This document shows positions 22,160 to 62,677 of a stretch of 64,000 bases of DNA, piece by piece. Under the pieces are notes generated by a model, which searched no databases, was not told the DNA's origin, and worked only from the letters and a program-made list of their open reading frames with translations. The stretch's first letter is position 1. Each line of letters starts with the position of its first letter. This DNA is from Candidatus Berkelbacteria bacterium (GTDB taxonomy: Bacteria > Patescibacteriota > UBA1384 > 2-12-FULL-50-11): assembly GCA_016432625.1 (NCBI GenBank), contig CP066697.1, forward strand, positions 151,113 through 215,112. Direction: 5' to 3'. Made by a program: the position numbers and the translations under genes.

Positions 22160-22530
22160 TCAAAAGTTCCTTTTGGGCATAATATTACTACCACCTTTGG
22201 CATAACGGCCGTGCCGAATTGAATCAACCTGTTCTGGTAGTGAGTCTTTGTCCAATAGAATAAAACTTCAAGGCCTTCACTCTTTTCTTGAAAGGCTTCC
22301 CAGAAGTGTTGAAAATCCATTTTATTGGTAATAAACCCAGAAATTTCTCGATCAATACCCTTGCACCTCAGCGAGATAGTGGCGTAGGGAACGTCTTTTA
22401 CCTTAGATATTACTTCGCCATTTTCAACCGTACTACCAAGCGGTCGGAGTTCGTTAGCTATACATAACTTGCTATCGATAACCGACCACTCATTATCTCT
22501 AAGTAGGACAACTTCTTCTGAGTTATTCAT
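22039..22530 (-). CDS. Hypothetical protein (AT-rich islet), probably the 5' part of a longer frameshifted gene
   Basis: 163-aa ORF with ATG start. No recognisable motif. Confidence 0.5.
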   Translation of the reverse strand: MNNSEEVVLLRDNEWSVIDSKLCIANELRPLGSTVENGEVISKVKDVPYATISLRCKGIDREISGFITNKMDFQHFWEAFQEKSEGLEVLFYWTKTHYQNRLIQFGTAVMPKVVVILCPKGTFESVTEDFSLRPKEDARANVYGLTPTKFWIPPVILGGKIES

Positions 22531-22593
22531 AGCTGAATTTTACTACTTCCTGAATTGATTCAAAGAGAACTGCTCCCTATGCATGTGCCGTTC

Positions 22594-23952: not shown

Positions 23953-24000
23953 CAGCCTATAAAGAAAGAGAGCTGATAGCTCTCTTTCTTGTTTCTCCAA

Positions 24001-25998: not shown

Positions 25999-26056
25999 TT
26001 GCACCCCATTCTATGTCTGAGATATCCAAAACGGTGTTTTTGATAATCTTTCCCAT
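25991..26056 (-). CDS. Possible 21-codon upstream ORF overlapping the dnaK start
   Basis: ATG at 26056 with an AAGGAGGAGAG tract about 10 nt upstream. Encodes [21 protein letters not shown]. Its stop (TAA, 25993-25991) lies 2 codons after the dnaK ATG in another frame. Confidence 0.35.
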
Positions 26057-37297: not shown

Positions 37298-37464
37298 AAT
37301 AGCGGCTGGCTCAAGTCGATAGTAATCGGTTCGAAGAATTCTGCGGCCCCAATGCCGCTATTTTGCAGTTGAATTAGCAACGCATAAGCGCCGATTGCCA
37401 GAGTTACGAAAAATACAAACGCGTAGAGTAGTAACCAGCGACGTTCCTTGTGGCGCGCACTCAT
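37294..37464 (-). CDS. Possible 56-aa single-TM protein
   Basis: MSARHKERRWLLLYAFVFFVTLAIGAYALLIQLQNSGIGAAEFFEPITIDLSQPLF. ATG start. Below the ORF-track cutoff. Convergent 4-nt overlap with the GH94 stop. Confidence 0.35.
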   Translation of the reverse strand: MSARHKERRWLLLYAFVFFVTLAIGAYALLIQLQNSGIGAAEFFEPITIDLSQPLF

Positions 37465-37483
37465 TAGAATTAGACTACATCAA

Positions 37484-39493
37484 ATGCCAGAGCCTATCAC
37501 GCTTTCAAGCAGTATCACCAAATTGTATGGCGTGGGAGAGCAAGTGCAGACCAAGCTCTCTAAGCTCGGCGTCAAAACCGTCAGAGACCTGCTTGAATTA
37601 TTGCCTCATCGCGCCGAAGATCGGACGAACCTTTGTTTGATTAAAGATTTAAAGATCCAAGACGAAGCGGTGATTCACGGCACGATAACTCGTGTCAGCG
37701 CCCGGATGAGCAAGCGCGGTGTTTTGGTAATTGAAGCGAGAGTTAAAGATAACAGCGGCTCGATTAACGCAGTTTGGTTCAATCAACGTTACTTGCTGAA
37801 GAATTTAGAAGAGGGACAAAGCATCAGTCTTTACGGCGCTAAACGAATTGTACCGACAATGGGGAACCCGTTTTTCGTTAAGAAAATTATTTCTAACTTG
37901 GAAATTGCTCCTATATATCCCGGAACCTCGGGTCTGAATCAGGCAACAATCAGCCGATTGATTTCGCAAGTTCGGCCGCTCCTAACCAGCATTAAGGATA
38001 TTATCCCACCCAAAGTCGTGACAGAACTTGGCCTGCCGTCACGTCGGTTAGCGTTGGAAGCGGCGCATTTTTCGCCAAACGAAAAAACCTTAGAACAAGC
38101 ACGCAAGTTACTTGGCTTCGAAGAGCTATTTATACTGTGTTTGCAGGCTTTGGTTGCCAAAGAGTCTCGTCAAGAGGATCGGGCGATGAGCATTAAGCCT
38201 GAGGGTAAAGAAATCGCAAGAATAAAAAGTAGTGTTGGTTTTGATTTAACGGCTTCTCAGGAGGAAGTGCTGTCGGAAGTGATCTCGGATCTAAGCGAAT
38301 CTTACCCGATGAACCGCTTGCTCTACGGAGAAGTTGGTAGTGGCAAGACGGCAGTTGGTTTGATAGCGGCGGCAATGGTCGCCCGACGAGGCAAAAAAGT
38401 GGTTTGGCTTAGTCCAACAACGGCGCTTGCCAACCAGCAAGCGCGGCTAACGGGAGAATATTGTAATAAGTTACAGTTAACTTGTAGTCTACTGACCGGT
38501 CACCATAAGGATCCACATGAAAAGGCGTCAGTTATCGTTGGTACGCACGTTCTTTTGCAAGAGAAGGTTACCTTGGGAGATGTGGGGCTGGTGGTTATCG
38601 ATGAGCAGCATAGGTTCGGGGTCGACCAGCGCAACTTCTTACTGAAAAATCATCCGCACGCCCATTTATTAATGCTCAGCGCTACGCCAATTCCTCGCAC
38701 ACTCGCGCACACCCTCTTCGGCCACTTAGATGTTAGCTATTTGACCGAAAAACCATCACATCAAAAACCGATTGAGACATATGTCTTTGAAGACGATGAG
38801 CGCGAGAAAGTTGAAGCGCATATTAATAAGCGACTCGAAAGCAAACAGCAAGGGTATATCATTTGCCCACTTATTAATCCGACAGGAAATACGACAACGC
38901 TATTCCAAAGCGAACGAAAAGCCGTGACGACTGAGCTGAAGCGTGTTGAAGAGGCGCATCCTACGGCCAAAGTCGGTCTCTTGCACGGAAGATTAAAGCA
39001 GGAAGATAAGGAGGCGGTAATGCAAGGTTTCATGGAGGGGGAGATCGACATCCTGCTTTCCACAAGCGTAGTAGAAGTTGGCATCGATAATAAAAACGCC
39101 ACTTGGATATTAATTGAGGAGGCAGATTGTTTCGGGCTGAGCCAGCTTCATCAATTGCGTGGTCGAGTTGGCCGAGGTGAACGGCCGTCGGTTTGTTTTC
39201 TGCAAAATTCACAAACTACTGAGCACGCAACTGAGAGATTGAAAGCTTTGAGGAACGCTAAAGATGGTTTAGAAATAGCTGAGTTTGATTTAAAGTTTCG
39301 CGGGCCGGGCAATATCGCGGGTTACGAGCAAAGCGGCTTGCCCAATCTTCGTTACGCTGACTTAAATGACCTCGGGGAAATAAAAAAAGCATATACTGCA
39401 GCTAAGGAAATTATGGACGAAGGGTTGAGTAAGTATCCGCTGCTAACAAAACAGCTAAAGAATGGTCAGGAAAATGGACTTGCCGCGGCTTGA
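37484..39493 (+). CDS. recG: ATP-dependent DNA helicase RecG
   Basis: Wedge/OB N-terminal region. Helicase motifs GEVGSGKT, VIDEQHRFG, SATPIPRT, QLHQLRGRVGRG. Confidence 0.9.
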   Translation: MPEPITLSSSITKLYGVGEQVQTKLSKLGVKTVRDLLELLPHRAEDRTNLCLIKDLKIQDEAVIHGTITRVSARMSKRGVLVIEARVKDNSGSINAVWFNQRYLLKNLEEGQSISLYGAKRIVPTMGNPFFVKKIISNLEIAPIYPGTSGLNQATISRLISQVRPLLTSIKDIIPPKVVTELGLPSRRLALEAAHFSPNEKTLEQARKLLGFEELFILCLQALVAKESRQEDRAMSIKPEGKEIARIKSSVGFDLTASQEEVLSEVISDLSESYPMNRLLYGEVGSGKTAVGLIAAAMVARRGKKVVWLSPTTALANQQARLTGEYCNKLQLTCSLLTGHHKDPHEKASVIVGTHVLLQEKVTLGDVGLVVIDEQHRFGVDQRNFLLKNHPHAHLLMLSATPIPRTLAHTLFGHLDVSYLTEKPSHQKPIETYVFEDDEREKVEAHINKRLESKQQGYIICPLINPTGNTTTLFQSERKAVTTELKRVEEAHPTAKVGLLHGRLKQEDKEAVMQGFMEGEIDILLSTSVVEVGIDNKNATWILIEEADCFGLSQLHQLRGRVGRGERPSVCFLQNSQTTEHATERLKALRNAKDGLEIAEFDLKFRGPGNIAGYEQSGLPNLRYADLNDLGEIKKAYTAAKEIMDEGLSKYPLLTKQLKNGQENGLAAA

Positions 39494-39911
39494 AGAGCAG
39501 CTTAGTCACCGGTTCGGCTGGGTGGTGACGTTATTTCTTGTTGCTGGAACGGCCTTCATCCTCGGTCGGCAGTATCAACCAAGAATCGAGACGACCTCGG
39601 GGGACGAGGTCGTCAGCGCTAGCCAACCGGCGGGCATAATTCAGGATATTCAACAGTCGCTATCTAGCGGAACCGATACCGACGTTGTCACTTCTAGCGA
39701 CCCTATCGCTGAAAGCACGGGGATTGTTCACCTAAATAGCGCCACTCTTGCCGAGCTCGACAAGTTACCCGGGATCGGTCCAACGAAAGCTCGAGCCATT
39801 ATTGACTACCGGACGGCCAATGGCCCGTTTGTTCGCGTTGACGATCTCGTGAACGTAAAAGGTATTGGACCAGCGACGTTAGAGAAACTGCGTAGCCAAA
39901 TTACCTTATAA
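39462..39911 (+). CDS. comEA: ComEA DNA-binding competence protein (helix-hairpin-helix). The start could instead be the ATG at 39474.
   Basis: N-terminal TM helix. LNSATLAELDKLPGIGPTKARAIIDYR and VKGIGPATLEKL HhH motifs. Confidence 0.8.
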   Translation: MVRKMDLPRLEEQLSHRFGWVVTLFLVAGTAFILGRQYQPRIETTSGDEVVSASQPAGIIQDIQQSLSSGTDTDVVTSSDPIAESTGIVHLNSATLAELDKLPGIGPTKARAIIDYRTANGPFVRVDDLVNVKGIGPATLEKLRSQITL

Positions 39912-39961
39912 CTGCTGAATTTGTTCGAGATTTTTGTTAAAATTAACCAGTTAATTAGGCA

Positions 39962-40044
39962 GCCGGGATGGCGAAATGGTAGACGCACTAGCTTTAGGAG
40001 CTAGCGGGAGCAATCCCATGGAGGTTCAAGTCCTCTTCCCGGCA
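39962..40044 (+). tRNA. tRNA-Leu (anticodon TAG), type II
   Basis: Acceptor GCCGGGA/TCCCGGC, anticodon stem CTAGC/GCTAG with loop TTTAGGA, long variable arm, T-arm GGAGGTTCAAGTCCTCT. Confidence 0.85.
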
Positions 40045-40045
40045 C

Positions 40046-40124
40046 TGAACCCAAGGTTCACTACGAACCGCCGAAGGCGGTGAAGTGCCAAGCACGTTAG
40101 TGCGAGCGGTCCTCTCCCAGGCAC
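40046..40124 (+). repeat. Hairpin-rich segment ending in a degenerate copy of the tRNA-Leu(TAG) 3' end
   Basis: GTCCTCTCCCAGGCAC (40109-40124) matches GTCCTCTTCCCGGCAC (40030-40045) at 14/16 positions. Between them lie TGAACC-caa-GGTTCA and ACCGCC-gaa-GGCGGT hairpins. Confidence 0.5.
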
Positions 40125-40141
40125 GGACGAGTTAGGTTAGA

Positions 40142-41173
40142 ATGTGCAAAATGCCTCTGACGGTTCTCGAGGAAAGAATATTAGATTCGATTATTGTTGC
40201 CTCAGACAACGACCCCGCAAAGCCGGAGTTTCCTGCCGATGATCCGAAGTTTCCAGCAACGCCGACATACAAAATCGAAATCCCAGGTTTTAGTAATGTT
40301 TGGCTTAAAGATGAGTCGCATAACCCAACTGGCACCCACAAAGACCGGATGGCCTGGGAGATCATCGTCACCTACCGTGACTTTTTAGTAGCAAAAGAGA
40401 GCGGCCAAGTCTCCGGCGGACTGCCGACGCTGTCCATTATCTCCTCGGGTGGAGCAGCAGTTTCTATCCAGACCCAGTTACGTAAATATAAACTACCGAA
40501 CCTCAAGGTCTTAGCCGACAAGACGACATCAAAAACCATACTGGCTTTTCTGCACCATTTAGGATGCGAACTTTATCTAACCGATTTATCCAGGCGGCCA
40601 TTTAGTACTAGGGAGATTCTGAAGCTAACGAACAATCCTAGCGGTTTCGATATTACTTCAAGCGAAGCGCTTGATCCGACAACAAGATTTTATGACTGGT
40701 TAAGTTATGAGGTTCTTAATAATTCACCGGAATATTGCTTTATCCCTTTCGGGACTGGGAATCTTTACGAGAACATACTCAATATAAATAAGCGGGAGGC
40801 GACGGCCGACACACACGATCCGCGTTTCAAAGGCGATGTTCGGATTTTGCGACAGTGCAACTTTTTTGGCGCTACATCAAACAACCGCAATACCAAAGCC
40901 GACAAGCTATATTCGCCGCACTTGCCGTTCGTACACTACGACGAGCAGTGGATCCGGTTTTATCGCCAAGCCGGTTACTGCGGTCCCGATTCTGATGTCT
41001 TTCCGGTGGAGGAGAAGTACTTCGATGAAGCAATGCAACTAGCTGATGCTAATAACGTGAGGTGTGAGTACTCAGGGATCGCTGGACTAGCGCTAATGTT
41101 GCAGATGAAAGACTCCCTGCCGCGTGACAAGAAAATGTTGATAGTAAATACCGGTAAATCCGTCTCCTCATAG
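40142..41173 (+). CDS. Fold-type II PLP-dependent enzyme (threonine synthase / cysteine synthase-like)
   Basis: LKDESHNPTGTHKDR resembles the PLP-lysine motif (NPTGSFKDR) of this superfamily. 343 aa. Confidence 0.6.
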   Translation: MCKMPLTVLEERILDSIIVASDNDPAKPEFPADDPKFPATPTYKIEIPGFSNVWLKDESHNPTGTHKDRMAWEIIVTYRDFLVAKESGQVSGGLPTLSIISSGGAAVSIQTQLRKYKLPNLKVLADKTTSKTILAFLHHLGCELYLTDLSRRPFSTREILKLTNNPSGFDITSSEALDPTTRFYDWLSYEVLNNSPEYCFIPFGTGNLYENILNINKREATADTHDPRFKGDVRILRQCNFFGATSNNRNTKADKLYSPHLPFVHYDEQWIRFYRQAGYCGPDSDVFPVEEKYFDEAMQLADANNVRCEYSGIAGLALMLQMKDSLPRDKKMLIVNTGKSVSS

Positions 41174-41382
41174 CTGGTGTTACAGCAACTCCCAAAGGTG
41201 CCTGAAAATCGATGAATATGGTCCAGAACGAGGTTTTCGTGCGTCTCCAAACCTAACAAAAGAAGGGCTTGGCGGCTTGATTTAGCGACCTAAAGTGTGT
41301 AAGATTTGGGGCGTCCAAAGCTCTTTTACGGGGCAATGGCGCAAATCTCATCACTGAATGGATCCGAAAGGAGTAGAAAAGA

Positions 41383-42366
41383 TTGAAGTTTCTCCGATCT
41401 CTAAAGGAATACCTCCTCTTTGCCTGGGAATACCTGACGCATGACCCGGGCAAGGGGCGCTACGCCCTCCACATGTTCGCCAACACGGCCGACATGTACT
41501 TTTTCGTTAACAGGGGTGGCGTCTTAAGGGGATCAGAGAACCCGGCCACTCAACTGACTCGTCAACGGCTCGGCGGCAGCTACAAACCGCTCCTGCCTAA
41601 TGAGGACCTCGGTATGGTTATCGAGTGCCTCGAGACTGGACAGCCCAAGGAAATCTTTGGGTTATTCGACGGCAAACGTGCCGTCTGGACCTGCACGCCT
41701 AGGCTCGGAACCGGCGAAGTGATGGTTTGCCTCTCGGTTGAACGAGGGGAGCTAATCCACCAAGCCACGATCCACCCCTTGAGCGGCCTACGTAACAGGT
41801 TGGCCTTCGAGACTGACTTAGACCGGATGCCTTCGGTCGAGAACGGCACCTACGAAGCCATAGTGTTCATTGATGTCGACAACTTTGGCGACTTCAATAG
41901 CAGCCTTGGCCACGAAATAGGTGATTTCGTCATCCGCGAGGTGGGTCATGCCACCAGGGAACAGTTCCGCCAGATCGACATGTCGTACACCTACGGTGGC
42001 GATGAGGAGGTCGTGCGAATGCGCGAGATACCTGGCGAATTTGCTGAAGCGAAGAAGGTCGTGGAACAGACGACCAAACTGCTTCAGCGCAGGATCGCTC
42101 GCATCAAGCACAAGGGCAAAGCACTTGGCATCACCGTCTCGATTGGCGTTACGCTTTTCGAGAGCGGTGAAACCGATCTGCAGCAGCGGATCAAGGAGGC
42201 CGACGACGCCCTCTACTTCGCCAAGGAAACAGGACGAGACAGGGTCTGCTTCTTCCAAGAAGTCGATCCGTCCTGGCTATCCGAACGCCGCAAAGTCGCT
42301 CCGACTATCGGAGCGACGGAGCAGAAACGGCCTGTTGTAGTGAAAACCGCAAAGAGCCCGGCCTAG
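41383..42366 (+). CDS. GGDEF-domain protein (diguanylate cyclase-like) with an uncharacterised N-terminal domain. The active-site motif reads GGDEE.
   Basis: TTG start with AAAGGAG 9 nt upstream. Motifs HPLSGLRNRLAF, FIDVDNFGDFNSSLGHEIGD, RQID-x5-GGDEE, SIGV, ADDALYFAKETGRDR. Confidence 0.8.
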   Translation: MKFLRSLKEYLLFAWEYLTHDPGKGRYALHMFANTADMYFFVNRGGVLRGSENPATQLTRQRLGGSYKPLLPNEDLGMVIECLETGQPKEIFGLFDGKRAVWTCTPRLGTGEVMVCLSVERGELIHQATIHPLSGLRNRLAFETDLDRMPSVENGTYEAIVFIDVDNFGDFNSSLGHEIGDFVIREVGHATREQFRQIDMSYTYGGDEEVVRMREIPGEFAEAKKVVEQTTKLLQRRIARIKHKGKALGITVSIGVTLFESGETDLQQRIKEADDALYFAKETGRDRVCFFQEVDPSWLSERRKVAPTIGATEQKRPVVVKTAKSPA

Positions 42367-42431
42367 TGCCGGGCTCGACTCTTACCCTCCAAGTTTTGTA
42401 TTAAAGAAACGTCCCTGTAACAATACGTTTG

Positions 42432-43349
42432 ATGCTGAAGCGAAAAATAATCCTCGAACCTCGCGATCTTTGGTGGGAAGCTCAGGGCGTGTTTAATCCG
42501 GGGGTCGCTGAATATAATGGTCGCACCTATATGCTTTATCGCGCTTTTGGCCGCGATAATTTGTCGCGTCTTGGCCTAGCAATCTCAGAGGACGGCGAGC
42601 ATTTTGAACGATTTGATCAACCAATGCTCGAAGCGGATGAGCATAATCCGTACGAGCGTCTTGGTGTTGAAGACCCACGAATTACCAAAATCGACAAGGA
42701 TTATTACATCACCTACATCGCCGCCTCCGTCTACCCGGCGGACTATAAAGGGATGAGCGCGCACTCTTTGAATACCCCTGGGGTACCTTGGCGAGTGAGA
42801 GTTTGCGGATACCGAACCCGCGACTTCCGGACCTTCGAGAAGCTCGGCGTTCTCATTCCTAATTTAGACACCAAAAACCCAGCGCTCTTTAGCCGCAAAA
42901 TTCAAAATAACTATTGGTTAATTCATCGAATATCGCTGGCCATCTACGTCTCAGTTTCGACAAACTTGAAACAGTTTGGCGGTGGCTATCAACTGATGCA
43001 GCCGGAAACGGAGTGGGAAGCGGCCAAGGTTGGGGTTGCCTGCCCACCGCTCGAAACTGAGCACGGCTGGCTGATGTTTTATCACGGGGTTGACGAGAAA
43101 TCGGTCTACCATATCGGTGTCGCCCTCCTTGATCGTCAAAACCCCGCCTTTATCCTGAAGCGAACTAAAACGCCGCTCATGAGCCCAGAAGAGCCCTGGG
43201 AGAAGAAAGGCTATGTAAATAATGTTGTGTTCGTAACTGGTGTAACTGAGCGTCGGGGCATGCTGAATTTGTACTATGGGGGTGGCGATAAGGTAGTCGG
43301 TGTTGCTAAAATCTCAATTGATGCAGTACTTGAATCTCTCGATCGCTAA
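42432..43349 (+). CDS. GH130 family glycoside phosphorylase/hydrolase-like protein
   Basis: GVFNPGVAEYNGRTYMLYRA and EDPRITKIDKDYYITY motifs are typical of GH130 (DUF377) beta-propellers. Confidence 0.75.
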   Translation: MLKRKIILEPRDLWWEAQGVFNPGVAEYNGRTYMLYRAFGRDNLSRLGLAISEDGEHFERFDQPMLEADEHNPYERLGVEDPRITKIDKDYYITYIAASVYPADYKGMSAHSLNTPGVPWRVRVCGYRTRDFRTFEKLGVLIPNLDTKNPALFSRKIQNNYWLIHRISLAIYVSVSTNLKQFGGGYQLMQPETEWEAAKVGVACPPLETEHGWLMFYHGVDEKSVYHIGVALLDRQNPAFILKRTKTPLMSPEEPWEKKGYVNNVVFVTGVTERRGMLNLYYGGGDKVVGVAKISIDAVLESLDR

Positions 43350-43641
43350 ATCAGGCTACGATCGGTGGCGATCGCTATCCGAAGAACATCGCCTAACTGT
43401 TAGATGGGCAATGGTGACGGCCATGACGGTGGCTGTCTACTTTTGGGCGCTATTCGTTATGCCAGAGAATCAGACGGTTATGCGTTATTTCTTGAGCCTT
43501 TATGTTGTTGATAGTATCGTTTTCTTCCTTATTTTTCGCGACTATCAAGCCCTTGGCAAGACAATGCTAGTCTTCCTTTTCGCCTTAGAATTGGTCGTCG
43601 CGCTTTACTACGGCTTCAATTATTTGAGCGCTGGGGTATGA
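43321..43641 (+). CDS. Small three-TM membrane protein (start uncertain, 43300-43321)
   Basis: Overlaps GH130 at its 5' end and GT2 at its 3' end (ATGA). Hydrophobic helices. Confidence 0.45.
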   Translation: MQYLNLSIAKSGYDRWRSLSEEHRLTVRWAMVTAMTVAVYFWALFVMPENQTVMRYFLSLYVVDSIVFFLIFRDYQALGKTMLVFLFALELVVALYYGFNYLSAGV

Positions 43642-45155
43642 AGCCTTTCCACGTTCGGTTGTGGGAGGTAATTCCTGGCTTCATGACCTGGTCAACGATC
43701 ATTCTGCTACTGCTCTTCTCTTTTAGCGAGCCGTATATAGTTGCGACGATCGTGATGATTTACTCGATCTACTGGTTGATTCGAATTTTTATCATGACAG
43801 GCTTTCTAATTGCCGGCTTTGTCCGCTACCGTCGCGAAATTGCCATTGATTGGCAGCAACGCCTCAAAACCGAATTTCCGCTTCGCGAGGAGGAGCTATA
43901 TCACTTGGCAATCGTACCCTCTTACAAAGAGGATATCTCGATCTTACGCCACACTTTAGACTCAATCCGGCGCAGTCATTACTCGCACCGAAAAATGATC
44001 GTGGTTTTGGCTTTTGAGGAACGTGACAAAGAGCTTGCGCCGCAGTACGCGCCGATTCTAACTCGTGAATACGAACACCAATTTGCGAAGTTTATGGTTA
44101 CGCACCATCCGACTGATATCCCGGGTGAAGTTCGCGGCAAAGGGCCGAATATTACCTGGGCGGCACGTCAGATAAAGGAATGGATTGACGACAAGAAAAT
44201 TCCTTATGAAAAAATTATTACCACCACCTTAGATGCGGATAACCGCGTCGACCCACAATATTTCGCGAATGTCGCTTGGGCATTTTTGAGTTCGGACGAC
44301 CCGCATCATAAAACGTTCCAACCGTTGCCGATGTTCTTCAATAATATTTGGCAAGTGCCATTGCCGGTCAAAATTACGGCTCTGAGCTCCACCTTCTGGC
44401 AAATGATTCAGGCGCTTAGGCCGCACCATGCCCGTAATTTTTCCGCTCACGCCCAGAGCTTTAAGGCTTTGGTCGAAACTGACTTCTGGTCAGTTACTAC
44501 TGTGGTCGAAGACGGCCATCAGTATTGGCGGTCATTCTTCCGCTTTAACGGTAATCACCGGATTGTGCCGATCTTTGTCCCGGTCTATCAAGACGCTGTG
44601 CAGGGGGAAAATATGTACGATACATTTCGCGAACAGTACCTGCAGCGCCGTAGGTGGTATTGGGGCGCTTCAGACATCCCTTACGTATTTCATATGTCGT
44701 TTCGTAACAGCAATATCCCCTTTTTCTACAAATGGCTGCAACTAGGACGACTGGTTGAGGCCCATTACTCTCTGGCGACTCAGTCCTTTATTCTGTTGAT
44801 CGGATGGTTGCCGTTGCTGGCGGTTTCCGAGTTTCGTACGACGGTTATTGGCTATAATTTCCCCGCCGTCTATCGCGCGGTTCTGGCCGCGGCTTGGATC
44901 GGCATGATTGCCAACATGACAATCGCCTCAAGCTTGGTACCGCCACGCCCAGGTAGTCGCGGCATGTACTGGCTTATGCTGGCTCGCGAGTGGGTTTTTG
45001 CACCGATTGCCATGCCGATCTCCGGAATTTTGTTTTCTGCCTTGCCGGCGATAGACTCACAGACCCGGATGTTAATAAATAAACCCTTTACCGTTTTCAA
45101 CGTCACGAAAAAAGCCGCAATACCGAGCGGAGTGTTACAAAAGAGCAGTCCTTAA
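43638..45155 (+). CDS. Membrane-integrated family 2 glycosyltransferase (processive synthase-like)
   Basis: TM helices at both ends. TLDADN (DxD), VVEDGH (ED), LQRRRWYWG (QxxRW-like). Confidence 0.75.
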   Translation: MKPFHVRLWEVIPGFMTWSTIILLLLFSFSEPYIVATIVMIYSIYWLIRIFIMTGFLIAGFVRYRREIAIDWQQRLKTEFPLREEELYHLAIVPSYKEDISILRHTLDSIRRSHYSHRKMIVVLAFEERDKELAPQYAPILTREYEHQFAKFMVTHHPTDIPGEVRGKGPNITWAARQIKEWIDDKKIPYEKIITTTLDADNRVDPQYFANVAWAFLSSDDPHHKTFQPLPMFFNNIWQVPLPVKITALSSTFWQMIQALRPHHARNFSAHAQSFKALVETDFWSVTTVVEDGHQYWRSFFRFNGNHRIVPIFVPVYQDAVQGENMYDTFREQYLQRRRWYWGASDIPYVFHMSFRNSNIPFFYKWLQLGRLVEAHYSLATQSFILLIGWLPLLAVSEFRTTVIGYNFPAVYRAVLAAAWIGMIANMTIASSLVPPRPGSRGMYWLMLAREWVFAPIAMPISGILFSALPAIDSQTRMLINKPFTVFNVTKKAAIPSGVLQKSSP

Positions 45156-45216: not shown

Positions 45217-45831
45217 CTAGTTGTTCTTGAGGTAGAAATTGTGGCTGCAGCTTTGCACGAAGTCGTCTTTGTCGCAGAGCTTGAACCCTAAGCTACCGCC
45301 GGTCTGGAATTCGGTGCTATATGGCTTCAGGTCGGTTGCGGGATCGGGCGCGCTATCGCTCATGTTGACCGATCGCTCAAGCCGACCCATAAGGTAGAAA
45401 CCTTTCGGCGTTTGTGACACGCCTTCGCTGACGGCAGTGTAGATGAATTGCCCGAAGTTGGCGTCATAACACTGTTCGCCGACGTGGAGCTGGTAGACGG
45501 GATCCTGAGGAATAGTGGTGACGTAGACTGGCGCGAGGAATTCTTTGTCGCCGTACGGCGGACAGCCAGAACCGCCAATTTTCTCAAGCTGCCAGCGGGC
45601 GATAAATAATCCACGGGGATTGGCGGTTATCGGCGGATAGTGTCTATTCTCGAGGTAGTACTGCTCTAGACCGTTCTTTATAAGTTGGAGGTCGGTGATT
45701 CGTTGATAATCGCGTGAGCGCACTAACGACGAGTTGTACATGTAGGTAGTAATGGTCACCAGGATCCCGATTATTGAAACAACCGTTAGCACCTCGACTA
45801 AAGTGAAGCCCCGTCGCAATGTTGAACGCAT
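45217..45831 (-). CDS. Type IV pilin-like protein (prepilin N-terminal cleavage/methylation domain)
   Basis: The ATG at 45831 gives MRSTLRRGFTLVEVLTVVSIIGILVTI, the class III signal G|FTLVE plus hydrophobic helix. Confidence 0.75.
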   Translation of the reverse strand: MRSTLRRGFTLVEVLTVVSIIGILVTITTYMYNSSLVRSRDYQRITDLQLIKNGLEQYYLENRHYPPITANPRGLFIARWQLEKIGGSGCPPYGDKEFLAPVYVTTIPQDPVYQLHVGEQCYDANFGQFIYTAVSEGVSQTPKGFYLMGRLERSVNMSDSAPDPATDLKPYSTEFQTGGSLGFKLCDKDDFVQSCSHNFYLKNN

Positions 45832-45890
45832 AAAGCAAGTGTGCCGCAGAATTGCCCGGAGCGCAAACAAACGCTGGTACAATGCTTCTA

Positions 45891-46376
45891 ATGAGCGATC
45901 TATTGTGGATTTTCAGTTCGGTGGTGCTGATGTTGCCGGCTGTGGTAGGTATTTTCATTCCGGTTGTTCCTGGGATACCGCTGATGTTCTTAGTGGCGTT
46001 AGTTTTTGGTTTTATTAATAAGTTCGCAGCATTGACTGCTAGTGAGCTTGTAATCTTGCTGACAATTGCCCTGGTTTCAATCGCTGTTGATTATCTTGCC
46101 GGGGTCTTGGGCGCCAAATACTCCGGCGCCTCAGCCCGTGCCTTGGTAATTGGTTTCATCTGTATGATTCTCGGCGTGCTTATCTTGCCGCCGTTTGGTG
46201 GCTTGATAGGTTTGTTTATCGGCGTATTGGTGGCGGAGCTCGGAAATCGCACTCACCGCGAAGCAATCAGGGCGGCAACTGGCAGTCTAATCGGCGCCTT
46301 AACGGGAATCCTTATCAATTTCTTGCTAGCGCTACTCTTTATCACCCTTTTCATTATTTTTGCCTGGCCGCGCTAA
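45891..46376 (+). CDS. DUF456-like polytopic membrane protein
   Basis: ATG at 45891. An extended -10 (TGgTACAAT, 45875-45883) lies 7 nt upstream. GIPLMFLVALVFGF-type helices. Confidence 0.6.
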   Translation: MSDLLWIFSSVVLMLPAVVGIFIPVVPGIPLMFLVALVFGFINKFAALTASELVILLTIALVSIAVDYLAGVLGAKYSGASARALVIGFICMILGVLILPPFGGLIGLFIGVLVAELGNRTHREAIRAATGSLIGALTGILINFLLALLFITLFIIFAWPR

Positions 46377-46409: not shown

Positions 46410-47192
46410 ATGGAAGTAATGAAACTCAGGCGGTTACTGGCTTTAACTGTCGGGCGCAATCTGCTTATTGCCGCGGTTTTTGCGTCGGTTGGCGTCGTGC
46501 TACTCTTGACCGCTCCCAAGGAGAAACCTGTACAGGCCCAAGTTGGTGGGCAATACAGCGCCAATTGGGAAGCGACCCACCTACTTATCGCTCGCTTGGT
46601 TCAACCTGACCTGTTAACTAAACAGAAGTGTGAAACCGTGAACTCAGTGACTCGCCCTTACGGTGAGCCCGCTAACTCGGAAGTGGCCATCGGCCCGTCC
46701 CGCTGGGAGGTAAGAGGTCAGATGGATGACGGCTCTCGGTTTAAAGAAATCTGGACCACGGCCCAGATCCCTGCTCGGATCACTTACGGTGAGGGAACCT
46801 GGTACACGAACTGGTTTTTCAACGGTTACTGCAGTACACCTGGCTTAAAGTTAAAGATTATGGGTAACCAGAACCAGGAAGACTGGATCATCGGCTTCAT
46901 GCAGGACAGAAGCCTAGGAATGTCGGCGATGGAATTTCGGACAATCGGTGTCAACGACGCGATGACTAATACTAGTAACTATCCTGATGGTAACGTACGG
47001 AACATCAGTAAAACGACTTCTTGCCAACGAACAAACCGCTGTGTCTTTACAACCGGTCCGTATGCCTGGACGACTTTCCACGAAATCGACCAAGCTACCG
47101 AAAGTAAGTACGAGAATGTCGGAACCTTAATACCTGCTCACTGGGATGTGAGGGGTACGTTATGTCCTGTGGGGGATAACCGTTGTGATTAA
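46410..47192 (+). CDS. Secreted six-cysteine protein, paralogue 1 of 3 (start may be the ATG at 46419)
   Basis: Signal/anchor LLIAAVFASVGVVLLL...VQAQ. Blocks shared with paralogues 2 and 3 (SEVAIG, RFKEIW, TTSCQ, GDNRCD at the C-terminus). Confidence 0.6.
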   Translation: MEVMKLRRLLALTVGRNLLIAAVFASVGVVLLLTAPKEKPVQAQVGGQYSANWEATHLLIARLVQPDLLTKQKCETVNSVTRPYGEPANSEVAIGPSRWEVRGQMDDGSRFKEIWTTAQIPARITYGEGTWYTNWFFNGYCSTPGLKLKIMGNQNQEDWIIGFMQDRSLGMSAMEFRTIGVNDAMTNTSNYPDGNVRNISKTTSCQRTNRCVFTTGPYAWTTFHEIDQATESKYENVGTLIPAHWDVRGTLCPVGDNRCD

Positions 47193-47469
47193 TATGACGC
47201 CGCAAAAGTTTTCGAACGCAGTTTTGGCCTTGAGCGTGCTAGTTTTGCTTTTGGGTATCTCAACATATTGGCAAAGTAACGCGGAGCCAAATCTTGACTC
47301 AAAGACCTCGGTTACAGAGCGGGACGCCGCACTTTCGAGAGCTAGAATCGGCGACGGCACGTATAGTTTCTCAACTAGCTTCATCCCAGGGCTTGGCTAC
47401 ATCGGCTCTGCCGAGCAGACCAGACAAAAATTTAAGCAAGATAATAAAGGAGCGATAACCAACCAATGA
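47185..47469 (+). CDS. Small membrane-anchored protein embedded in the paralogue array
   Basis: 94-aa ORF overlapping both neighbours (8 nt and 4 nt). One TM helix (AVLALSVLVLLLGI). Confidence 0.45.
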   Translation: MINMTPQKFSNAVLALSVLVLLLGISTYWQSNAEPNLDSKTSVTERDAALSRARIGDGTYSFSTSFIPGLGYIGSAEQTRQKFKQDNKGAITNQ

Positions 47470-48170
47470 AGCGTGCTGCTAGTCTGTCCGTCATATTGCT
47501 AGGGATACTAGGTTTAGTTCTGGTTAATTCGCAACAAGTGAGCGCTCAAAGTAGCGACTACACAACCAAGTGGGACGCAAATAGTCTAATCGTTGGGACG
47601 TTGCACCGCCCGATTACTGGTAACTCCGAGGGCGATTGCGTTAATGGCACGCTTCTTGGTAATTACGGCGACCCGGCCGGATCAGAAATCGCCTTCGGTA
47701 TTAATCAGTGGACCGTCAAGGGGCGTATCACTGGCTCGACAAAATTTAAAGAAGTCTGGTCGGCACCGCAGTTGCCTTATGCTTACACCTACGGCGGCAC
47801 TTGGAATGGCAGCTGCCAAAACCTTAAGCTAATTGTCTCCGGCAACAACAGCATGACTGATTGGCTGATGGGCTACATTTCTAATGAAACATATACGCGG
47901 AGCGTAATGGCTTTTCGCTCAGTTGGTATCTCGCAAGGTATCAATAATAAGGTTAACGTCGACGTTTCTCGGGCTGACAACATCGGCAAAACGACGTCAT
48001 GCCAACGCCAGAACAACTGTTTGTATGCCACTGGCGGCTATGGCTGGACGGCTGCGCACGAAATCGATGACGCCCATGCCTGGAAGCCGATCAATGTTGG
48101 TATATTAATGCCTCTCAAGTGGACGATCAGTGGTGATATCTGCGACGGTGGAGACACTAGATGCGATTAA
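47466..48170 (+). CDS. Secreted six-cysteine protein, paralogue 2 of 3
   Basis: Signal peptide MKRAASLSVILLGILGLVLVNSQQVSAQ. Shared blocks SEIAFG, KFKEVW, TTSCQ and C-terminal GDTRCD. Confidence 0.6.
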   Translation: MKRAASLSVILLGILGLVLVNSQQVSAQSSDYTTKWDANSLIVGTLHRPITGNSEGDCVNGTLLGNYGDPAGSEIAFGINQWTVKGRITGSTKFKEVWSAPQLPYAYTYGGTWNGSCQNLKLIVSGNNSMTDWLMGYISNETYTRSVMAFRSVGISQGINNKVNVDVSRADNIGKTTSCQRQNNCLYATGGYGWTAAHEIDDAHAWKPINVGILMPLKWTISGDICDGGDTRCD

Positions 48171-48901
48171 AAATCATGGCTAATAGATTAGGCATTTTGA
48201 GGGTCTTGGTGGCGGTGCTAGTCCTTTTGGTGGGGTCAATCTTAGTCGGCGACGTGCCGGCCGTAGCACAAGCCAGTGACTACACAATCAACTGGCAAGC
48301 CACTGATCTAATCGTCGCCCGACTTAAGAAACCGAATTACGCACATAACCAGGCGGAGTGCACAACTTGGCGGCTTGACCCCCTTGGTACTCCCATCGAT
48401 TCTGAAGTGGCTATAGGTGTCCATAAGTGGACTGTCAGAGGCGAGCTTCCAGGCTCAGCAAGATTCAAAGAAATCTGGAGCACTCCCGCATTACCGAGAG
48501 CTTTCACATACACAGGTGATTTCATCAATGGCGAATGTCGAAACGGTCGCTTGATTATCGATGGCTTGGCAGGTCCTAACGACTGGCTGACCGGATATCT
48601 CAATGTAAGTAACCTTGGAGTCTCAGCCATGGAAATAAGAACGGTGGGTGTCACAACTGAGGTCGGACATCACAATCTAGACCCAGGCAGTGTTCGCAAC
48701 ATCGGCAATACTACATCATGTCAGGCGAGTGGGGGCGATACTGATCGCTGTACCTACACGACCGGTGCTTATAGTTGGCTCACTCTCCACAGGTTTCAGT
48801 CGGGAATGGATAAGAAGCACATGAATCTCGGTACGATGATCCCGCTCAAATGGTCTGTCAGCGGTACCTTCTGTGAACCTGGCGACAATCGCTGCGACTA
48901 A
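48161..48901 (+). CDS. Secreted six-cysteine protein, paralogue 3 of 3 (alternative start ATG at 48176)
   Basis: Signal peptide ...VLVAVLVLLVGSILVGDVPAVAQA. Shared blocks SEVAIG, RFKEIW, TTSCQ and C-terminal GDNRCD. Confidence 0.6.
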   Translation: MRLKIMANRLGILRVLVAVLVLLVGSILVGDVPAVAQASDYTINWQATDLIVARLKKPNYAHNQAECTTWRLDPLGTPIDSEVAIGVHKWTVRGELPGSARFKEIWSTPALPRAFTYTGDFINGECRNGRLIIDGLAGPNDWLTGYLNVSNLGVSAMEIRTVGVTTEVGHHNLDPGSVRNIGNTTSCQASGGDTDRCTYTTGAYSWLTLHRFQSGMDKKHMNLGTMIPLKWSVSGTFCEPGDNRCD

Positions 48902-48999: not shown

Positions 49000-49053
49000 A
49001 CACCGCGAGCAGGTAGTAAACACGGCCCGGAAATTCCGCGCCGTGTTCCCTAG

Positions 49054-49127
49054 CGGTCCCAACGGGAGTCGAACCCGTGATTTCCGGGATGAAAACCCGG
49101 CGTCCTAGGCCACTAGACGATGGGACC
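49054..49127 (-). tRNA. tRNA-Glu (anticodon TTC)
   Basis: Acceptor GGTCCCA/TGGGACC, anticodon stem CCGGG/CCCGG with loop TTTTCAT, T-arm ACGGGTTCGACTCCCGT. Confidence 0.9.
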
Positions 49128-49227
49128 AATTTACGAAAGCCTAACAGGTCAATTTTACTGAATACGCCACCAGTTATCAATGCTAAGATGATCGCCAATA
49201 ACCGACTTTCTTGGTAATAATTAGTTG

Positions 49228-50082
49228 ATGAGGGGGTTGCTACTTTTTTCGATCGCCGTTTTAGCCGCTGCGGTAGGAGTGGTTTTATTTCTTGTGTCAT
49301 ACGGCGGAAAGATCGCCGGGACGGAGCAACCTAATAGTAAAGTTGTCGCGGCGGATATACCTATAAAAACGCCAGAAACACGCCGTCGCGCGGAAGTGCC
49401 CATCCTGATGTACCACTACATTCGGGATTATAAGAGCGAAACGGACCCGCTCGGCGTCCAACTATCTGTTTCACCGGCGGCGTTTAGGGCTCAGCTGCAA
49501 GCCCTAAAGCGCGACGGCTATTCGACGATTAGTCTATCGGAATTCGCCAAAGGTAATTTTGGCTCTAAGCCGATCGTCCTGACTTTTGATGACGGGTACG
49601 AGGACCACTTCACTACAGCGTTACCGATCCTGCAGGAACTCAACTACACTGCTACCTTTTTTATCGTCAAAAATTTCATTGGGCGTCCTGGTTACTTGAG
49701 TGCTGCGCAAATAAGCATGCTACAGGACGCCGGTATGGAAATAGGCGGCCATTCCACAAATCACGCTAACCTCTCGAAAATGACTTATGAGAAGGCCGTC
49801 GCCGACATCTCCTCTAGTCTAGCTGGTCGCGACAACGTCTTTTCTTACCCCTCAGGGCAGTATACTTACGAGACCCTGGACGTAGTTAGCGGCCTGGGAG
49901 TAACGGCTGCGGTGACAACCGAACAGGGCGTCGCCACAACCGAAACCAACCTGCTGGAGCTGCCGCGTATTAGGGTAAAAGAGAAGACTGATCTAATTAG
50001 CAAGATCGCCGAGCTTAGAGACATCCAAGTACCGTCGAAGGCTTCACAGCCACCGGCCGCTGAGGTAGAATTACAGGAGTAG
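49228..50082 (+). CDS. Membrane-anchored polysaccharide deacetylase (NodB homology domain)
   Basis: PILMYHYI, VLTFDDGYEDHF, GGHSTNH motifs. ATG at 49228 (the track start at 49225 is a TTG). Confidence 0.8.
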   Translation: MRGLLLFSIAVLAAAVGVVLFLVSYGGKIAGTEQPNSKVVAADIPIKTPETRRRAEVPILMYHYIRDYKSETDPLGVQLSVSPAAFRAQLQALKRDGYSTISLSEFAKGNFGSKPIVLTFDDGYEDHFTTALPILQELNYTATFFIVKNFIGRPGYLSAAQISMLQDAGMEIGGHSTNHANLSKMTYEKAVADISSSLAGRDNVFSYPSGQYTYETLDVVSGLGVTAAVTTEQGVATTETNLLELPRIRVKEKTDLISKIAELRDIQVPSKASQPPAAEVELQE

Positions 50083-50154
50083 CGCGGTTAGCTCAGCTGG
50101 TAGAGCATTTCCTTGACGTGGAAAGGGTCAGTGGTTCGAGTCCACTACCGCGCA
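50082..50154 (+). tRNA. tRNA-Val (anticodon GAC)
   Basis: Acceptor GCGCGGT/ACCGCGC, anticodon stem TTTCC/GGAAA with loop TTGACGT, T-arm AGTGGTTCGAGTCCACT. Abuts the preceding stop codon and the following ATG. Confidence 0.9.
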
Positions 50155-50155
50155 C

Positions 50156-50900: not shown

Positions 50901-51605
50901 CTACTTCTTCTTCACCTGAATCTTCGTGGTCTTCGGCTTAGCCGGTTCCACTTTCGGCGCCACTATCTTAAGCGTCCCGTTTTCGAGTTTGGCCTCAACC
51001 TTGTCTTCTTTGATCGGCGTGGCAAATCGAATTGAACGACTGAACTCACTGTGTTGCCACTCACGACGCACAACATTCTTGCCTTCTTTCTCATTTTCGT
51101 CGTGCTTTTTAGTGCCAGTGATAGTTAGTGTATCTTCCGTCATCTCGATCTGAACATCGTCTTCGGCGTAACCCGGAACCTGTAATTCGATTTCGTACTC
51201 TTTGTCGGTTTCATGAATATTCATGGCGCCGGCAACGGTGCCCAGTGCTCGCGACCAATCACCACGACCAAAATTACGGTTGACCATCTCGCTCATCTCT
51301 TCTTGCATTCGATCCATTGCCTGAAACGGACTCCATGGTGCTAATTGCATCTTCGACTGCTCACCTCCTTCCTGAATTTCGTTATCGGTTGCTTGCTGAA
51401 CAATGTTTATGCCTTCGATTAAATCCGGCAAATTACAGCGGAAAAATTCCATCAGTGAAATCAAAACTGGCGCGCTAGGCAGATACTCGCCACGTTCAAG
51501 CGAGATTATCGATTGGCGAGATACGTTTAATTCCCGAGCCAATTCTTCTTGGCTCAGATCTCGCTGGGTGCGTAACTGGCGTAGTAATAAACGGAATCGA
51601 GGCAT
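50901..51605 (-). CDS. Fusion protein: N-terminal XRE/Cro-type helix-turn-helix domain plus a complete Hsp20/alpha-crystallin small heat-shock protein
   Basis: Residues 1-65 (LRQLRTQRDLSQEELARELNVSRQSIISLERGEYLPSAPVLISLMEFF) fit the HTH_3 pattern. Residues about 125-215 (HETDKEYEIELQVPGYAEDDVQIEMTEDTLTITG...FSRSIRFATPIKEDKVEAKLENGTLKIVAPK) fit the alpha-crystallin domain. The C-terminal KIQV is an I-x-I/V motif. Confidence 0.8.
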   Translation of the reverse strand: MPRFRLLLRQLRTQRDLSQEELARELNVSRQSIISLERGEYLPSAPVLISLMEFFRCNLPDLIEGINIVQQATDNEIQEGGEQSKMQLAPWSPFQAMDRMQEEMSEMVNRNFGRGDWSRALGTVAGAMNIHETDKEYEIELQVPGYAEDDVQIEMTEDTLTITGTKKHDENEKEGKNVVRREWQHSEFSRSIRFATPIKEDKVEAKLENGTLKIVAPKVEPAKPKTTKIQVKKK

Positions 51606-53578: not shown

Positions 53579-53965
53579 TGGTGGACCTGCCGGGAGTTGA
53601 ACCCGGGTCCGAGAACCTACGAACGAAGACGTCTACAAGCGTAGAAAGTTTAAAGTCTTAGCAGCTGGGCTTGAGAGCTTTCAAAAAACCCGACTGAGCA
53701 ACATCTTATTCTGAGGAGTTGTACCGATGTGCGCACAATCCCGGTTCTACTTTTTGACGCCTCGTTACCTTAGTAGAAGTCAGGTGACGAAACGGCATTG
53801 GCCGTTAGGCTAATGCTGTTGCAAAAGAAGGAGTCGCGAACAAGTTCGCAACACGAGCTTTTGCAGTTTCAAATGCGTTTGCACGTATTTGTTTTGCGCT
53901 CTAAGGCAGGCGCGTCCGCTTGCAGTCCTCGCTGTAAACGTTCCCGTCGAAGCCAGTACAGGCCC
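53579..53965 (-). ncRNA. ssrA: tmRNA (SsrA), about 387 nt, CCA encoded
   Basis: 5' GGGCCUG pairs with 3' CAGGUCC-ACCA, giving a G3:U pair. 3' T-arm GGACCCGGGTTCAACTCCCGGCAGGTCCACCA. The internal tag frame ends ...ATPSFATALA-TAA. Confidence 0.9.
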
Positions 53966-61601: not shown

Positions 61602-62024
61602 ATGACTCCTCGCCAAGTGTTGTATGCTAAAGCGGCCTTCGTAATATCCTTAGTGGCGACAATAGGCAGCTTATATTTCAGTAATGTCGCGCTCTACGCG
61701 CCGTGTGACCTTTGTTGGTACCAACGAATCGCCATCTACCCATTGTTAGCGATCGTTGGAGTTGGCCTAATAAGACATGATAACAATTTACATTTTTACG
61801 CTCTGCCGCTGCTAATGTTTGGCTTAATCGTGTCTGTCTATCAGAATTTACTCTATTACGGCATCGTCGCTGAGAGTACGGCAGTTTGCGGCTTGGGCGT
61901 ATCGTGCGCCGCTAAATACATTGAATGGCTCGGTTTTATAACAATCCCCCTGCTATCACTTATCGGATTGATTACTCTAACGGTGTTAATGTTTGCTTTC
62001 AAAAAAGAAGGAGCGACTAAATGA
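61602..62024 (+). CDS. Disulfide bond formation protein DsbB/BdbC family
   Basis: CDLCWYQRIAIYPL motif and a second Cys pair, VCGLGVSCA. Four TM helices. Confidence 0.8.
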   Translation: MTPRQVLYAKAAFVISLVATIGSLYFSNVALYAPCDLCWYQRIAIYPLLAIVGVGLIRHDNNLHFYALPLLMFGLIVSVYQNLLYYGIVAESTAVCGLGVSCAAKYIEWLGFITIPLLSLIGLITLTVLMFAFKKEGATK

Positions 62025-62677
62025 GTTCTGATATGAAGTTTGTCGGTGCGATTGTAGTAGTTGCAGTTCTAGCGATCGTCGGATTTGTTATTTTTGGCAA
62101 AAACGCTAAAACCAGCGATCCCGCGGCACAGGTTGAGGCGGCCGCCTTGACTGACGCTGGCCAGCAAGTCCGTCCTGATTCATACAAAAAAGGTATCGAA
62201 AACGGCAAGGTGATCGTAGTTGAGTGGGGAGATTATCAGTGCCCAGCCTGCCAAGCGGCAGATACCGAAGTAACGCAGATAGTTAGCGATTTTGCCGACC
62301 GCATTACATTTGTTTTCCGCCATTTCCCGTTGCCTAACCATAAATTCTCACAACTTACGGCGACTGCCGTTGAGGCAGCAGGGGCGCAAGGTAAATATTG
62401 GGAGATGCACGCCAAGCTTTATGGTAATCAAGAGGAATGGAGCACGGCTTCTACCTCAAAAGCGGTCGAACTTTTTGTCGGTTACGCTAAGGATCTTGGA
62501 ATCGACACCGAAAAGTTCCGCGCTGACTTGGTGGGACGTGTCTACAACGACAAGATCGCTCGGGATCTCGCGGACGCCGCGGCGATCGGTGTCAGTAAAA
62601 CCCCAACCTTCTTCGTTAATAGCGTCGAAGTTGGCCTGGATGGTTTGCGAACAGCAATTGAAGAGGGGTTAAAGTAA
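62021..62677 (+). CDS. Membrane-anchored DsbA/BdbD-like thiol:disulfide oxidoreductase
   Basis: Thioredoxin-fold CPAC active site (YQCPACQ). 4-nt overlap with the dsbB-like gene. Confidence 0.8.
   Translation: MSSDMKFVGAIVVVAVLAIVGFVIFGKNAKTSDPAAQVEAAALTDAGQQVRPDSYKKGIENGKVIVVEWGDYQCPACQAADTEVTQIVSDFADRITFVFRHFPLPNHKFSQLTATAVEAAGAQGKYWEMHAKLYGNQEEWSTASTSKAVELFVGYAKDLGIDTEKFRADLVGRVYNDKIARDLADAAAIGVSKTPTFFVNSVEVGLDGLRTAIEEGLK

Follow-up and report, generated by a model that had tools for sequence, protein, structure and literature searches.

The question raised by this locus is what a tiny groundwater bacterium does with three adjoining genes for divergent, cysteine-rich and apparently exported proteins, and with the very small gene for a membrane protein that lies between the first two of them. 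The genes lie in a stretch of 64,000 nucleotides (nt), called the window below, from a metagenome-assembled genome of Candidatus Berkelbacteria, which belongs to the CPR (candidate phyla radiation, or Patescibacteria). These bacteria account for a large share of bacterial diversity and are tiny, mostly uncultured and dependent on other cells, with about half of their genes unannotated. To our knowledge, the build of the CPR cell surface and its contact with a host are largely unknown beyond type IV pili. An earlier note on this DNA had described the three large genes as a secreted family and the small one as a frame wedged in among them. It is this once overlooked small open reading frame (ORF) that is the most informative part of the locus, and the pair tentatively suggests a module of the cell envelope in which β-rich domains are held or assembled outside the membrane on a shared anchor.

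A conserved pair of genes

The three large ORFs (P1, P2 and P3, of 260, 234 and 246 amino acids (aa)) were confirmed, all on the forward strand (Table 1), and P2 is identical to the NCBI entry HZB70_01855, on a contig of 768,791 bp. Public gene calls begin P1 at ATG 46419, giving 257 aa, and NCBI begins the small protein (HZB70_01860) at ATG 47194, giving 91 aa rather than the 94 aa read here from a GTG. Neighbouring genes overlap by 8 nt (P1 and the small gene, if the GTG start is used), 4 nt (the small gene and P2) and 10 nt (P2 and P3), an arrangement that fits one translationally coupled operon for all four, and a Shine-Dalgarno-like GGAG lies upstream of the P3 start at 48161. Promoter and terminator consensus scans around the array gave nothing exceeding shuffled expectation. 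Paralogy of the large proteins is far above chance, with BLASTP E-values of 6e-56 for P1 against P2 (39% identity) and 8e-61 for P2 against P3 (41% identity); pairwise identity among the three is 38-43%.

The overlapping single-pass ORF between P1 and P2 is real, as had been noted, but it is not incidental, being the conserved partner of the family at 16 of 16 loci. This emerged from a scan in which a hidden Markov model (HMM) of the family (A3) and one of the small protein (A5) were run on every fetched locus. In the loci reached through a family protein the small gene stands beside the family gene in nine of nine, and the loci reached through the motif of the small protein, where enough flank was available, all have a same-strand family gene alongside. 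The 16 loci are independent and carry one to three family genes for each single small gene, whose place is downstream of the family genes or among them in 13 loci and upstream in the other three (L012, L018 and L023). Three-copy arrangements recur in L022 (A, peptidyl-prolyl isomerase, B, C, small), L024 (A, B, small, C) and L025 (A, B, C, small). The nearest relative (GCA_022843855.1) shares the gene order of the window, its version of the small ORF being a homologue of 95 aa, and the gene for P0057, a member of only 26% identity, is followed by an overlapping one for a small homologue of 123 aa. Across these loci the small gene is the obligate, and the only universal, neighbour of the family.

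A candidate for a natural fusion of the two proteins (P0019, 373 aa; L008 245-1366) was rejected, as it contains two in-frame stops that the gene caller had read as Gln; under code 11 this locus reads family gene, small gene, family gene. Logan-derived 'fusions' of this kind need checking before they are put to Rosetta-stone use.

The small membrane protein

The 34 homologues of the small protein, of 58-123 aa, share a short basic N-terminus, one transmembrane helix, a linker of about 25 aa, a helix of the form TERxLAIxxA and a motif Y-x-F-x-T-N-F-I-P-G-I-G, with R43, Y57, F63, I64, P65 and G66 invariant. In the window the transmembrane helix and linker are followed by the helix TERDAALSRAR and the motif Y-S-F-S-T-S-F-I-P-G-L-G, contained in the peptide …GTYSFSTSFIPGLGYI…. 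In the AlphaFold2 (AF2) model the transmembrane helix has a predicted local distance difference test score (pLDDT) above 90, while the motif is modelled at a pLDDT of about 50 with no secondary structure. Invariance combined with predicted disorder is what one would expect of a linear motif that becomes ordered only on binding a partner. By the charges flanking the helix, 18 homologues favour a C-terminus outside the cell and 5 the opposite, with 4 tied (the mean net charge being +2.0 against +0.4), and on this basis the small protein is probably oriented with its N-terminus in and its C-terminus out, the motif then lying outside the membrane alongside the β-domains.

Weak matches (E=0.009 and 3e-4) had suggested that the small protein might be a piece of the TG-x-Y-G-F strand of the large ones, or mimic it, but the idea was discarded; hhalign aligns hydrophobic segments only, with a probability of 19%.

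The family of large proteins

An exhaustive HMMER search over 1.84 billion cluster representatives yielded 77 proteins at E<=1e-3, 24 of them at E<=1e-10; the family thus delimited comprises 77 clusters at 50% identity, nearly all of 205-290 aa. The exhaustive search was needed, word-indexed homologue searches having returned two matches with the single protein and four with a 79-sequence alignment, and a search of sequence stretches for related loci with alignment A2 found only the relative that was already known. Named members are without exception 'hypothetical protein' of Candidatus Berkelbacteria or 'Patescibacteria group bacterium'. That the family is an unrecognised one was upheld: neither the three paralogues nor the small protein matched Pfam, NCBIfam, PHROGs or PADLOC beyond one noise match (DUF5707, E=0.17), no Pfam family was matched by more than one of the 79 family members, and the family profile HMMs found no match among PDB sequences. 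Relatives of the module were also absent from phage and plasmid collections searched by tblastn, and no description of the family was found in the literature. A 1651-aa protein (P0026), with eight repeats matching profile positions 60-121, was set aside as spurious, scoring 0.9 bits against the broad family HMM.

Residues invariant or nearly so across the family (numbered as in P2) are W36, A38, G78, W82, V84, E96, W98, G190, Y192, P216, W219 and G223, which sit in the segments Y-T-x-x-W-x-A, I-G-V-x-x-W-x-V-x-G, F-x-E-x-W-x-x-P, T-G-x-Y-G-F and P-L-x-W-x-V-x-G. Most of the shared motifs listed in the earlier note stand, namely SE(V/I)A(I/F)G..W.V(R/K)G, (R/K)FKE(I/V)W, TTSCQ, H(E/R)(I/F)(D/Q) and the terminal GD(N/T)RCD-stop, but the leader of P1 ends in AQV rather than AQ(A/S), and the (S/Q)xY placed near the cleavage site is GQY in P1. 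What the three leaders have in common is V/A-x-A followed by Q. Variability and indels cluster in loops at about residues 51-70, 101-130 and 141-170.

The AF2 model of P2, built from the 79-sequence alignment, has a mean pLDDT of 92.5 and a predicted template-modelling (TM) score of 0.83. It shows an N-terminal helix (residues 5-20) followed by 13 β-strands, mostly in tight hairpins, of which the first is unusually long (residues 32-50) and comes directly after the leader. Foldseek found no fold relative for this model, the best match being at E 0.05 in the PDB and at E 0.014 in BFVD, with TM-scores of about 0.1 in both, and the absence of a known fold is a statement about solved structures. 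The noise-level matches were mostly to long-stranded up-and-down β-barrels or sheets (OmpA, AlkL, lipocalin-like and aerolysin-type proteins) and say only that the predicted structure is a β-meander; it does not have the elongated three-domain fold of the aerolysin/ETX-MTX2 proteins. The family is, then, undescribed, and has no relative at the level of protein families or among the folds of solved structures.

Export and disulphide bonds

Signal peptides had been proposed for the three paralogues, and Sec-type leaders with n-, h- and c-regions are indeed found throughout the family. They consist of a basic n-region (on average two Lys or Arg residues), a hydrophobic core with a median of 17 aa and a Pro/Gly turn, with an Ala-rich stretch at -7 to -4 ahead of the first conserved strand. 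In 76 of 76 members small residues at -3 and -1 mark a candidate site 3-7 residues before that strand, the calls of Sec and signal peptidase I (SPase I) sites being heuristic. No prepilin G/FTLxE motif and no match to PF07963 was found in the leaders of the paralogues. None of the three contains a Cys that could form a lipobox, the first Cys being residue 74, 58 and 67 in P1, P2 and P3, respectively. There is likewise no LPXTG sortase signal, the proteins stopping right after the last β-strand or Cys loop; members outside this group end in ...WTVTGTI(N/Y/L).

Each of the window paralogues has exactly six cysteines, at 74, 141, 205, 211, 252 and 259 in P1, at 58, 117, 179, 185, 226 and 233 in P2 and at 67, 126, 187, 197, 238 and 245 in P3, and alignment bears out the claim that all six correspond. 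The pattern is not kept as such in homologues, since six cysteines with the GD(N/T)RCD end are confined to the window's clade (9 of 80 members). What is kept is the parity: the number of cysteines after the leader is 2, 4, 6 or 10, and so even, in 80 of 80 members. Cysteines also come and go in pairs. Of C179 and C185 (P2 numbering), 64 members have both and 13 have neither (about 80% present); of C226 and C233, 43 have both and 36 neither (54% present); and the C58-C117 pair falls partly within an insertion specific to the window clade (residues 51-70, column occupancy 0.25-0.34). Even counts and pairwise gain and loss point to local disulphides and thus to a location outside the cytoplasm, so that disulphide bonding of these proteins, and hence their export, is strongly, if indirectly, indicated by the alignments, in keeping with what had been suggested from the three copies.

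A DsbB/DsbA-like pair in the same window, also part of that suggestion, was confirmed by Pfam matches (Table 1). As general machinery for forming extracytoplasmic disulphides it could act on the family proteins, but no specific link joins it to the module: it lies 13 kb away and did not appear in the 4-8 kb fetched on either side of related loci. An enrichment in extracytoplasmic thiol-disulphide oxidoreductases is reported for CPR bacteria, which also apparently lack a Gram-negative envelope (PMC6744442). The present proteins resemble the substrates of such oxidoreductases in monoderm bacteria (MdbA/DsbA-VKOR/DsbB) in being exported, in their even and co-varying cysteines and in the presence of DsbA and DsbB in the genome. 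The likeness is one of folding pathway and not of protein family; it is silent on function, and the Dsb genes here are unlinked to the module.

A proposed two-component module of the cell envelope

The reading towards which we lean, tentatively, is of a two-protein module at the cell surface, with a common membrane anchor that holds the β-ectodomains or serves for their assembly. The operon of four genes would encode both components. The three large proteins would leave the cell via Sec and fold outside the cytoplasmic membrane into a compact all-β domain, which in the window clade would be stapled by three local disulphides (C58-C117, C179-C185 and C226-C233 in P2), probably made by the DsbA/DsbB pair of the genome. 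The small protein, with its N-terminus in and C-terminus out, would present on a short outer tail the aromatic, strand-like Y-x-F-x-T-x-F-I-P-G-I-G, and this tail would bind the β-domain at its conserved aromatic core or edge (W36, W82, E96, W98, G190, Y192 and W219). One to three paralogous ectodomains would thereby share the small protein as their anchor in the membrane or their platform for assembly, and their variable loops would face outward and bind a ligand, a polymer or a host. That the two proteins bind one another, that the leader is cleaved as opposed to retained, that the domains are displayed on the surface and that they have any ligand is what we infer. The functional category is probably the ordinary envelope biology of a CPR bacterium.

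In Bacillus subtilis, TasA, a secreted β-rich subunit of biofilm fibres, and TapA, a membrane-proximal accessory protein that anchors or nucleates it, are encoded in one operon. What is alike is that a monoderm exports, via Sec, a β-rich protein of about 200-260 aa and encodes beside it a partner with a supposed anchoring or nucleating role, exerted through a short strand-like segment. It is an analogy without sequence similarity or a match to a fold in the PDB; moreover, the window operon has no dedicated signal peptidase gene, and its partner is a tiny single-pass protein from a family of 58-123 aa. A further analogy is with donor-strand-complemented fibres (chaperone-usher pili, archaeal threads and bundling pili), in that Y-x-F-x-T-x-F, disordered alone, could insert into or extend the β-sheet of its partner; the very long first β-strand (32-50) that follows the leader is a similar feature on the side of the large proteins.

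Several observations weigh against this arrangement. A leader with a G-x2-L-x3-G pattern would be unusual for a cleaved signal peptide, and its conservation means that the large proteins may be anchored by themselves, which would make an anchoring role for the small protein needless. The β-domain models confidently alone and so has no obvious need of a donated strand, and the invariant Glu, E96, could point instead to catalysis. The topology assigned to the small protein rests on a charge bias that is only moderate, and the 16 locus pairs are too few for an analysis of co-variation.

A bolder form of the envelope module seems unlikely. Here it would be a surface system restricted to Patescibacteria and built on a new β-fold, in which one to three ectodomains are nucleated or held by the invariant aromatic strand that the small protein donates, and form a structure for host contact or uptake. 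This could be an adhesive fibre or array, for example, or a scavenger resembling a β-barrel that collects hydrophobic molecules derived from the host. The scavenger merits consideration since, in the general view, CPR bacteria do not synthesise lipids of their own.

Whichever form holds, the locus offers a concrete and testable unit. An exported all-β protein, stapled by disulphides, and a single-pass partner bearing an invariant linear motif make up a conserved pair, and repeated lineage-specific expansion to two or three copies belongs to the picture. For structural biologists it is a candidate new fold, its confident model matching no solved structure, and for CPR biologists a specific candidate for an envelope complex; with a family as narrow as 77 clusters it is a well-delimited lead and not a solved mechanism.

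Alternative explanations

The leader is the basis of one alternative, in which the large proteins are type II membrane proteins with an uncleaved signal-anchor that pair helix-to-helix with the small protein through Gly-zipper-like motifs and act as a membrane receptor or sensor. Position 9 of the leader is Gly, Ala or Ser in 88% of members, position 12 is Leu in 67% and position 16 is Gly, Ala or Ser in 94%, the uncharged run has a median of 21 aa around the 17-aa core, and the transmembrane helix of the partner has the consensus G-x-L-x4-G, which resembles the G-x2-L-x3-G of the leader. From these sequences a retained leader may pack against the partner helix, and hhalign, at the low probability given above, aligns just the leader and partner-helix segments. 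That profile-profile score is weak, signal peptides of monoderms are often long, and in every one of the 76 members the first strand comes after an Ala-rich site that has small residues at -3 and -1; we give this alternative a low probability.

Equally improbable in our estimate is an extracytoplasmic enzyme active on glycans or peptidoglycan, with E96 and an aromatic cleft as its active site and the small protein as its tether or activator, acting on a polymer made by the neighbouring synthase and deacetylase. Small subunits do tether or activate some synthases, and beside the invariant E96 the family has five near-invariant Trp or Tyr residues. In the window's lineage the module sits between a GT2-like glycosyltransferase and a polysaccharide deacetylase. 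The block upstream of it (in the window, L001, L005, L022 and L024) consists of GGDEF, GH130, a small ORF, the GT2-like synthase, a pilin gene on the reverse strand and DUF456, and that downstream of the deacetylase, a cyclophilin and, both on the reverse strand, HTH-HSP20 and MacB/ABC genes; the same gene order is seen again in L005/L006. These carbohydrate and signalling genes (34973-45155 and 49225-50082), in a reduced genome, may form an exopolysaccharide pathway linked to cyclic di-GMP. The enzyme would have to do without this neighbourhood elsewhere, however, as the glycosyltransferase and deacetylase are absent around the module in L009, L010, L012 and L023, and L022 lacks the deacetylase. 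Neither sequence nor fold (PDB and BFVD) gave any similarity to a glycoside hydrolase, lyase, carbohydrate-binding module or peptidase, and E96 is the single invariant acidic residue.

A secreted toxin or bacteriocin, antagonistic or pore-forming, with the small membrane protein conferring immunity would account for a secreted protein beside a small transmembrane one and for tandem expansion of the paralogues, as in known bacteriocin/immunity pairs. We consider it highly unlikely. One small gene serves up to three paralogues that are 20-40% identical, with no cognate immunity gene for each, and the motif of the partner is more conserved than the 'toxin', the opposite of the pattern of fast co-evolving immunity proteins. 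Unlike such pairs, the module occupies a stable syntenic site in the core genome, carries no signal of mobile elements and has no phage or plasmid relatives, and its fold matches, among them the aerolysin-type ones, are not significant. Between copies b and c of L022 selection is purifying overall, at a dN/dS of about 0.17 (dS about 1.2). That is the sole duplicate pair recent enough for the ratio, synonymous sites being saturated at the 38-43% identity of the window paralogues, and the description of the family in the earlier note as diversifying is not supported.

An accessory role in type IV pili, as a tip adhesin or pilin-associated factor, is extremely improbable: pili are central to CPR biology (PMC6744442) and a divergent pilin-like gene with an N_methyl match lies one gene upstream of the module in the window, L001, L005, L022 and L024, but the family proteins themselves lack the prepilin motif, no pilus assembly genes are adjacent, and neither pilin nor glycosyltransferase genes occur near the module in L009, L010, L012 and L023.

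Evolution and genomic context

A neighbour-joining tree unites the window's three copies with both copies of the nearest relative in a single clade, within which P1 clusters with L001_A (47% identity). This grouping implies an expansion within the sub-lineage, yet an old one, and its identities of only 38-53% agree with the view that this is no recent duplication. Other lineages have expanded independently, L022 b and c, for example, being 70% identical.

The divergent pilin-like gene reported next to the array is real, but it is not adjacent, as a DUF456 gene intervenes (Table 1), and a pilin neighbourhood is not a trait of the family, being limited to one Berkelbacteria-like lineage. In L009, L012 and L023 the order is instead GatB, a PD40/Tricorn-like protein, HtrA, PrmC on the reverse strand, the module, RF-1, L31, S2 and Tsf, and in L010 the neighbours are Obg and a PD40-like protein. 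With syntenic housekeeping and envelope neighbours of this kind (PrmC, RF-1, S2, GatB, cyclophilin and HtrA) and without phage or plasmid relatives, the module is a vertically inherited element of the core genome and not the cargo of an island. With tRNA-Glu as the reference point, the family copies of the window are upstream, those of L001 on both sides and those of L005 and L022 downstream, and their differing sides suggest a local hotspot of duplication and rearrangement around the transfer RNA (tRNA) genes.

Table 1. Position of the module and of neighbouring features in the window.
Feature	Position	Strand	Remarks
Paralogue 1 (P1)	46410-47192	+	ORF, 260 aa from ATG 46410; family HMM match
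P1 leader	46410-46540	+	leader region; predicted SPase I-type site VQA/Q at about residue 43
Small single-pass membrane partner	47185-47469	+	ORF, 94 aa from GTG 47185
Paralogue 2 (P2)	47466-48170	+	ORF, 234 aa; the protein modelled by AF2
P2 leader	47466-47550	+	leader region; predicted site VSA/Q at residue 27
Paralogue 3 (P3)	48161-48901	+	ORF, 246 aa; family HMM match
P3 leader	48161-48270	+	leader region; predicted site AVA/Q at residue 36
GH94 phosphorylase	34973-37297
GGDEF diguanylate cyclase	41383-42366
GH130	42429-43349
GT2/chitin-synthase-like membrane glycosyltransferase	43638-45155
Pilin-like gene	45217-45882	-	N_methyl E=7e-6; motif RRG/FTLVEV
DUF456 gene	45852-46376		between pilin-like gene and array
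tRNA-Glu(ttc)	49053-49127	-	landmark; L001 7752-7826, L005 7822-7896, L022 4075-4149
Polysaccharide deacetylase	49225-50082
tRNA-Val(gac)	50082-50155	+	landmark; L001 8751-8824, L005 9898-9971, L022 4939-5011
DsbB-like	61602-62024	+	PF02600 E=4.7e-11
DsbA-like thioredoxin	62021-62677	+	PF01323 E=1e-14; PF13462 E=7e-22

In one lineage two further conserved, unannotated genes follow the module (L009 9019-10885, L012 8902-10609 and L023 8137-9847), the second of which ends in GKVL(N/D)YG-x-GGT-x-RF, perhaps a sorting or anchoring signal. They were rejected as part of the core module, being specific to that lineage and having no relatives in the window.

Other features of the window

The reverse-strand gene at 50901-51605, within the block downstream of the module, encodes an XRE-type helix-turn-helix domain (HTH_3, E=1e-14) fused to an HSP20/alpha-crystallin domain (E=8e-21). 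The fusion is kept at the same position in L001, L005 and L022 and is an unusual architecture for a small heat-shock protein, with a DNA-binding domain. Further away, a patch of low GC content on the reverse strand (22039-24000; 0.41-0.46 against about 0.50 elsewhere) adjoins DnaK (24001-26004). Its ORFs, of 163 and 468 aa, have no Pfam match, and the 468-aa product has hydrophobic segments at its N-terminus and a long, helical-looking C-terminal part. The window also contains a transfer-messenger RNA gene (53579-53965, reverse strand; Rfam, 118.6 bits) and a gene for a ComEC-like competence protein (28280-29482, forward strand; PF03772, E=7e-47), both of which are ordinary for CPR genomes.

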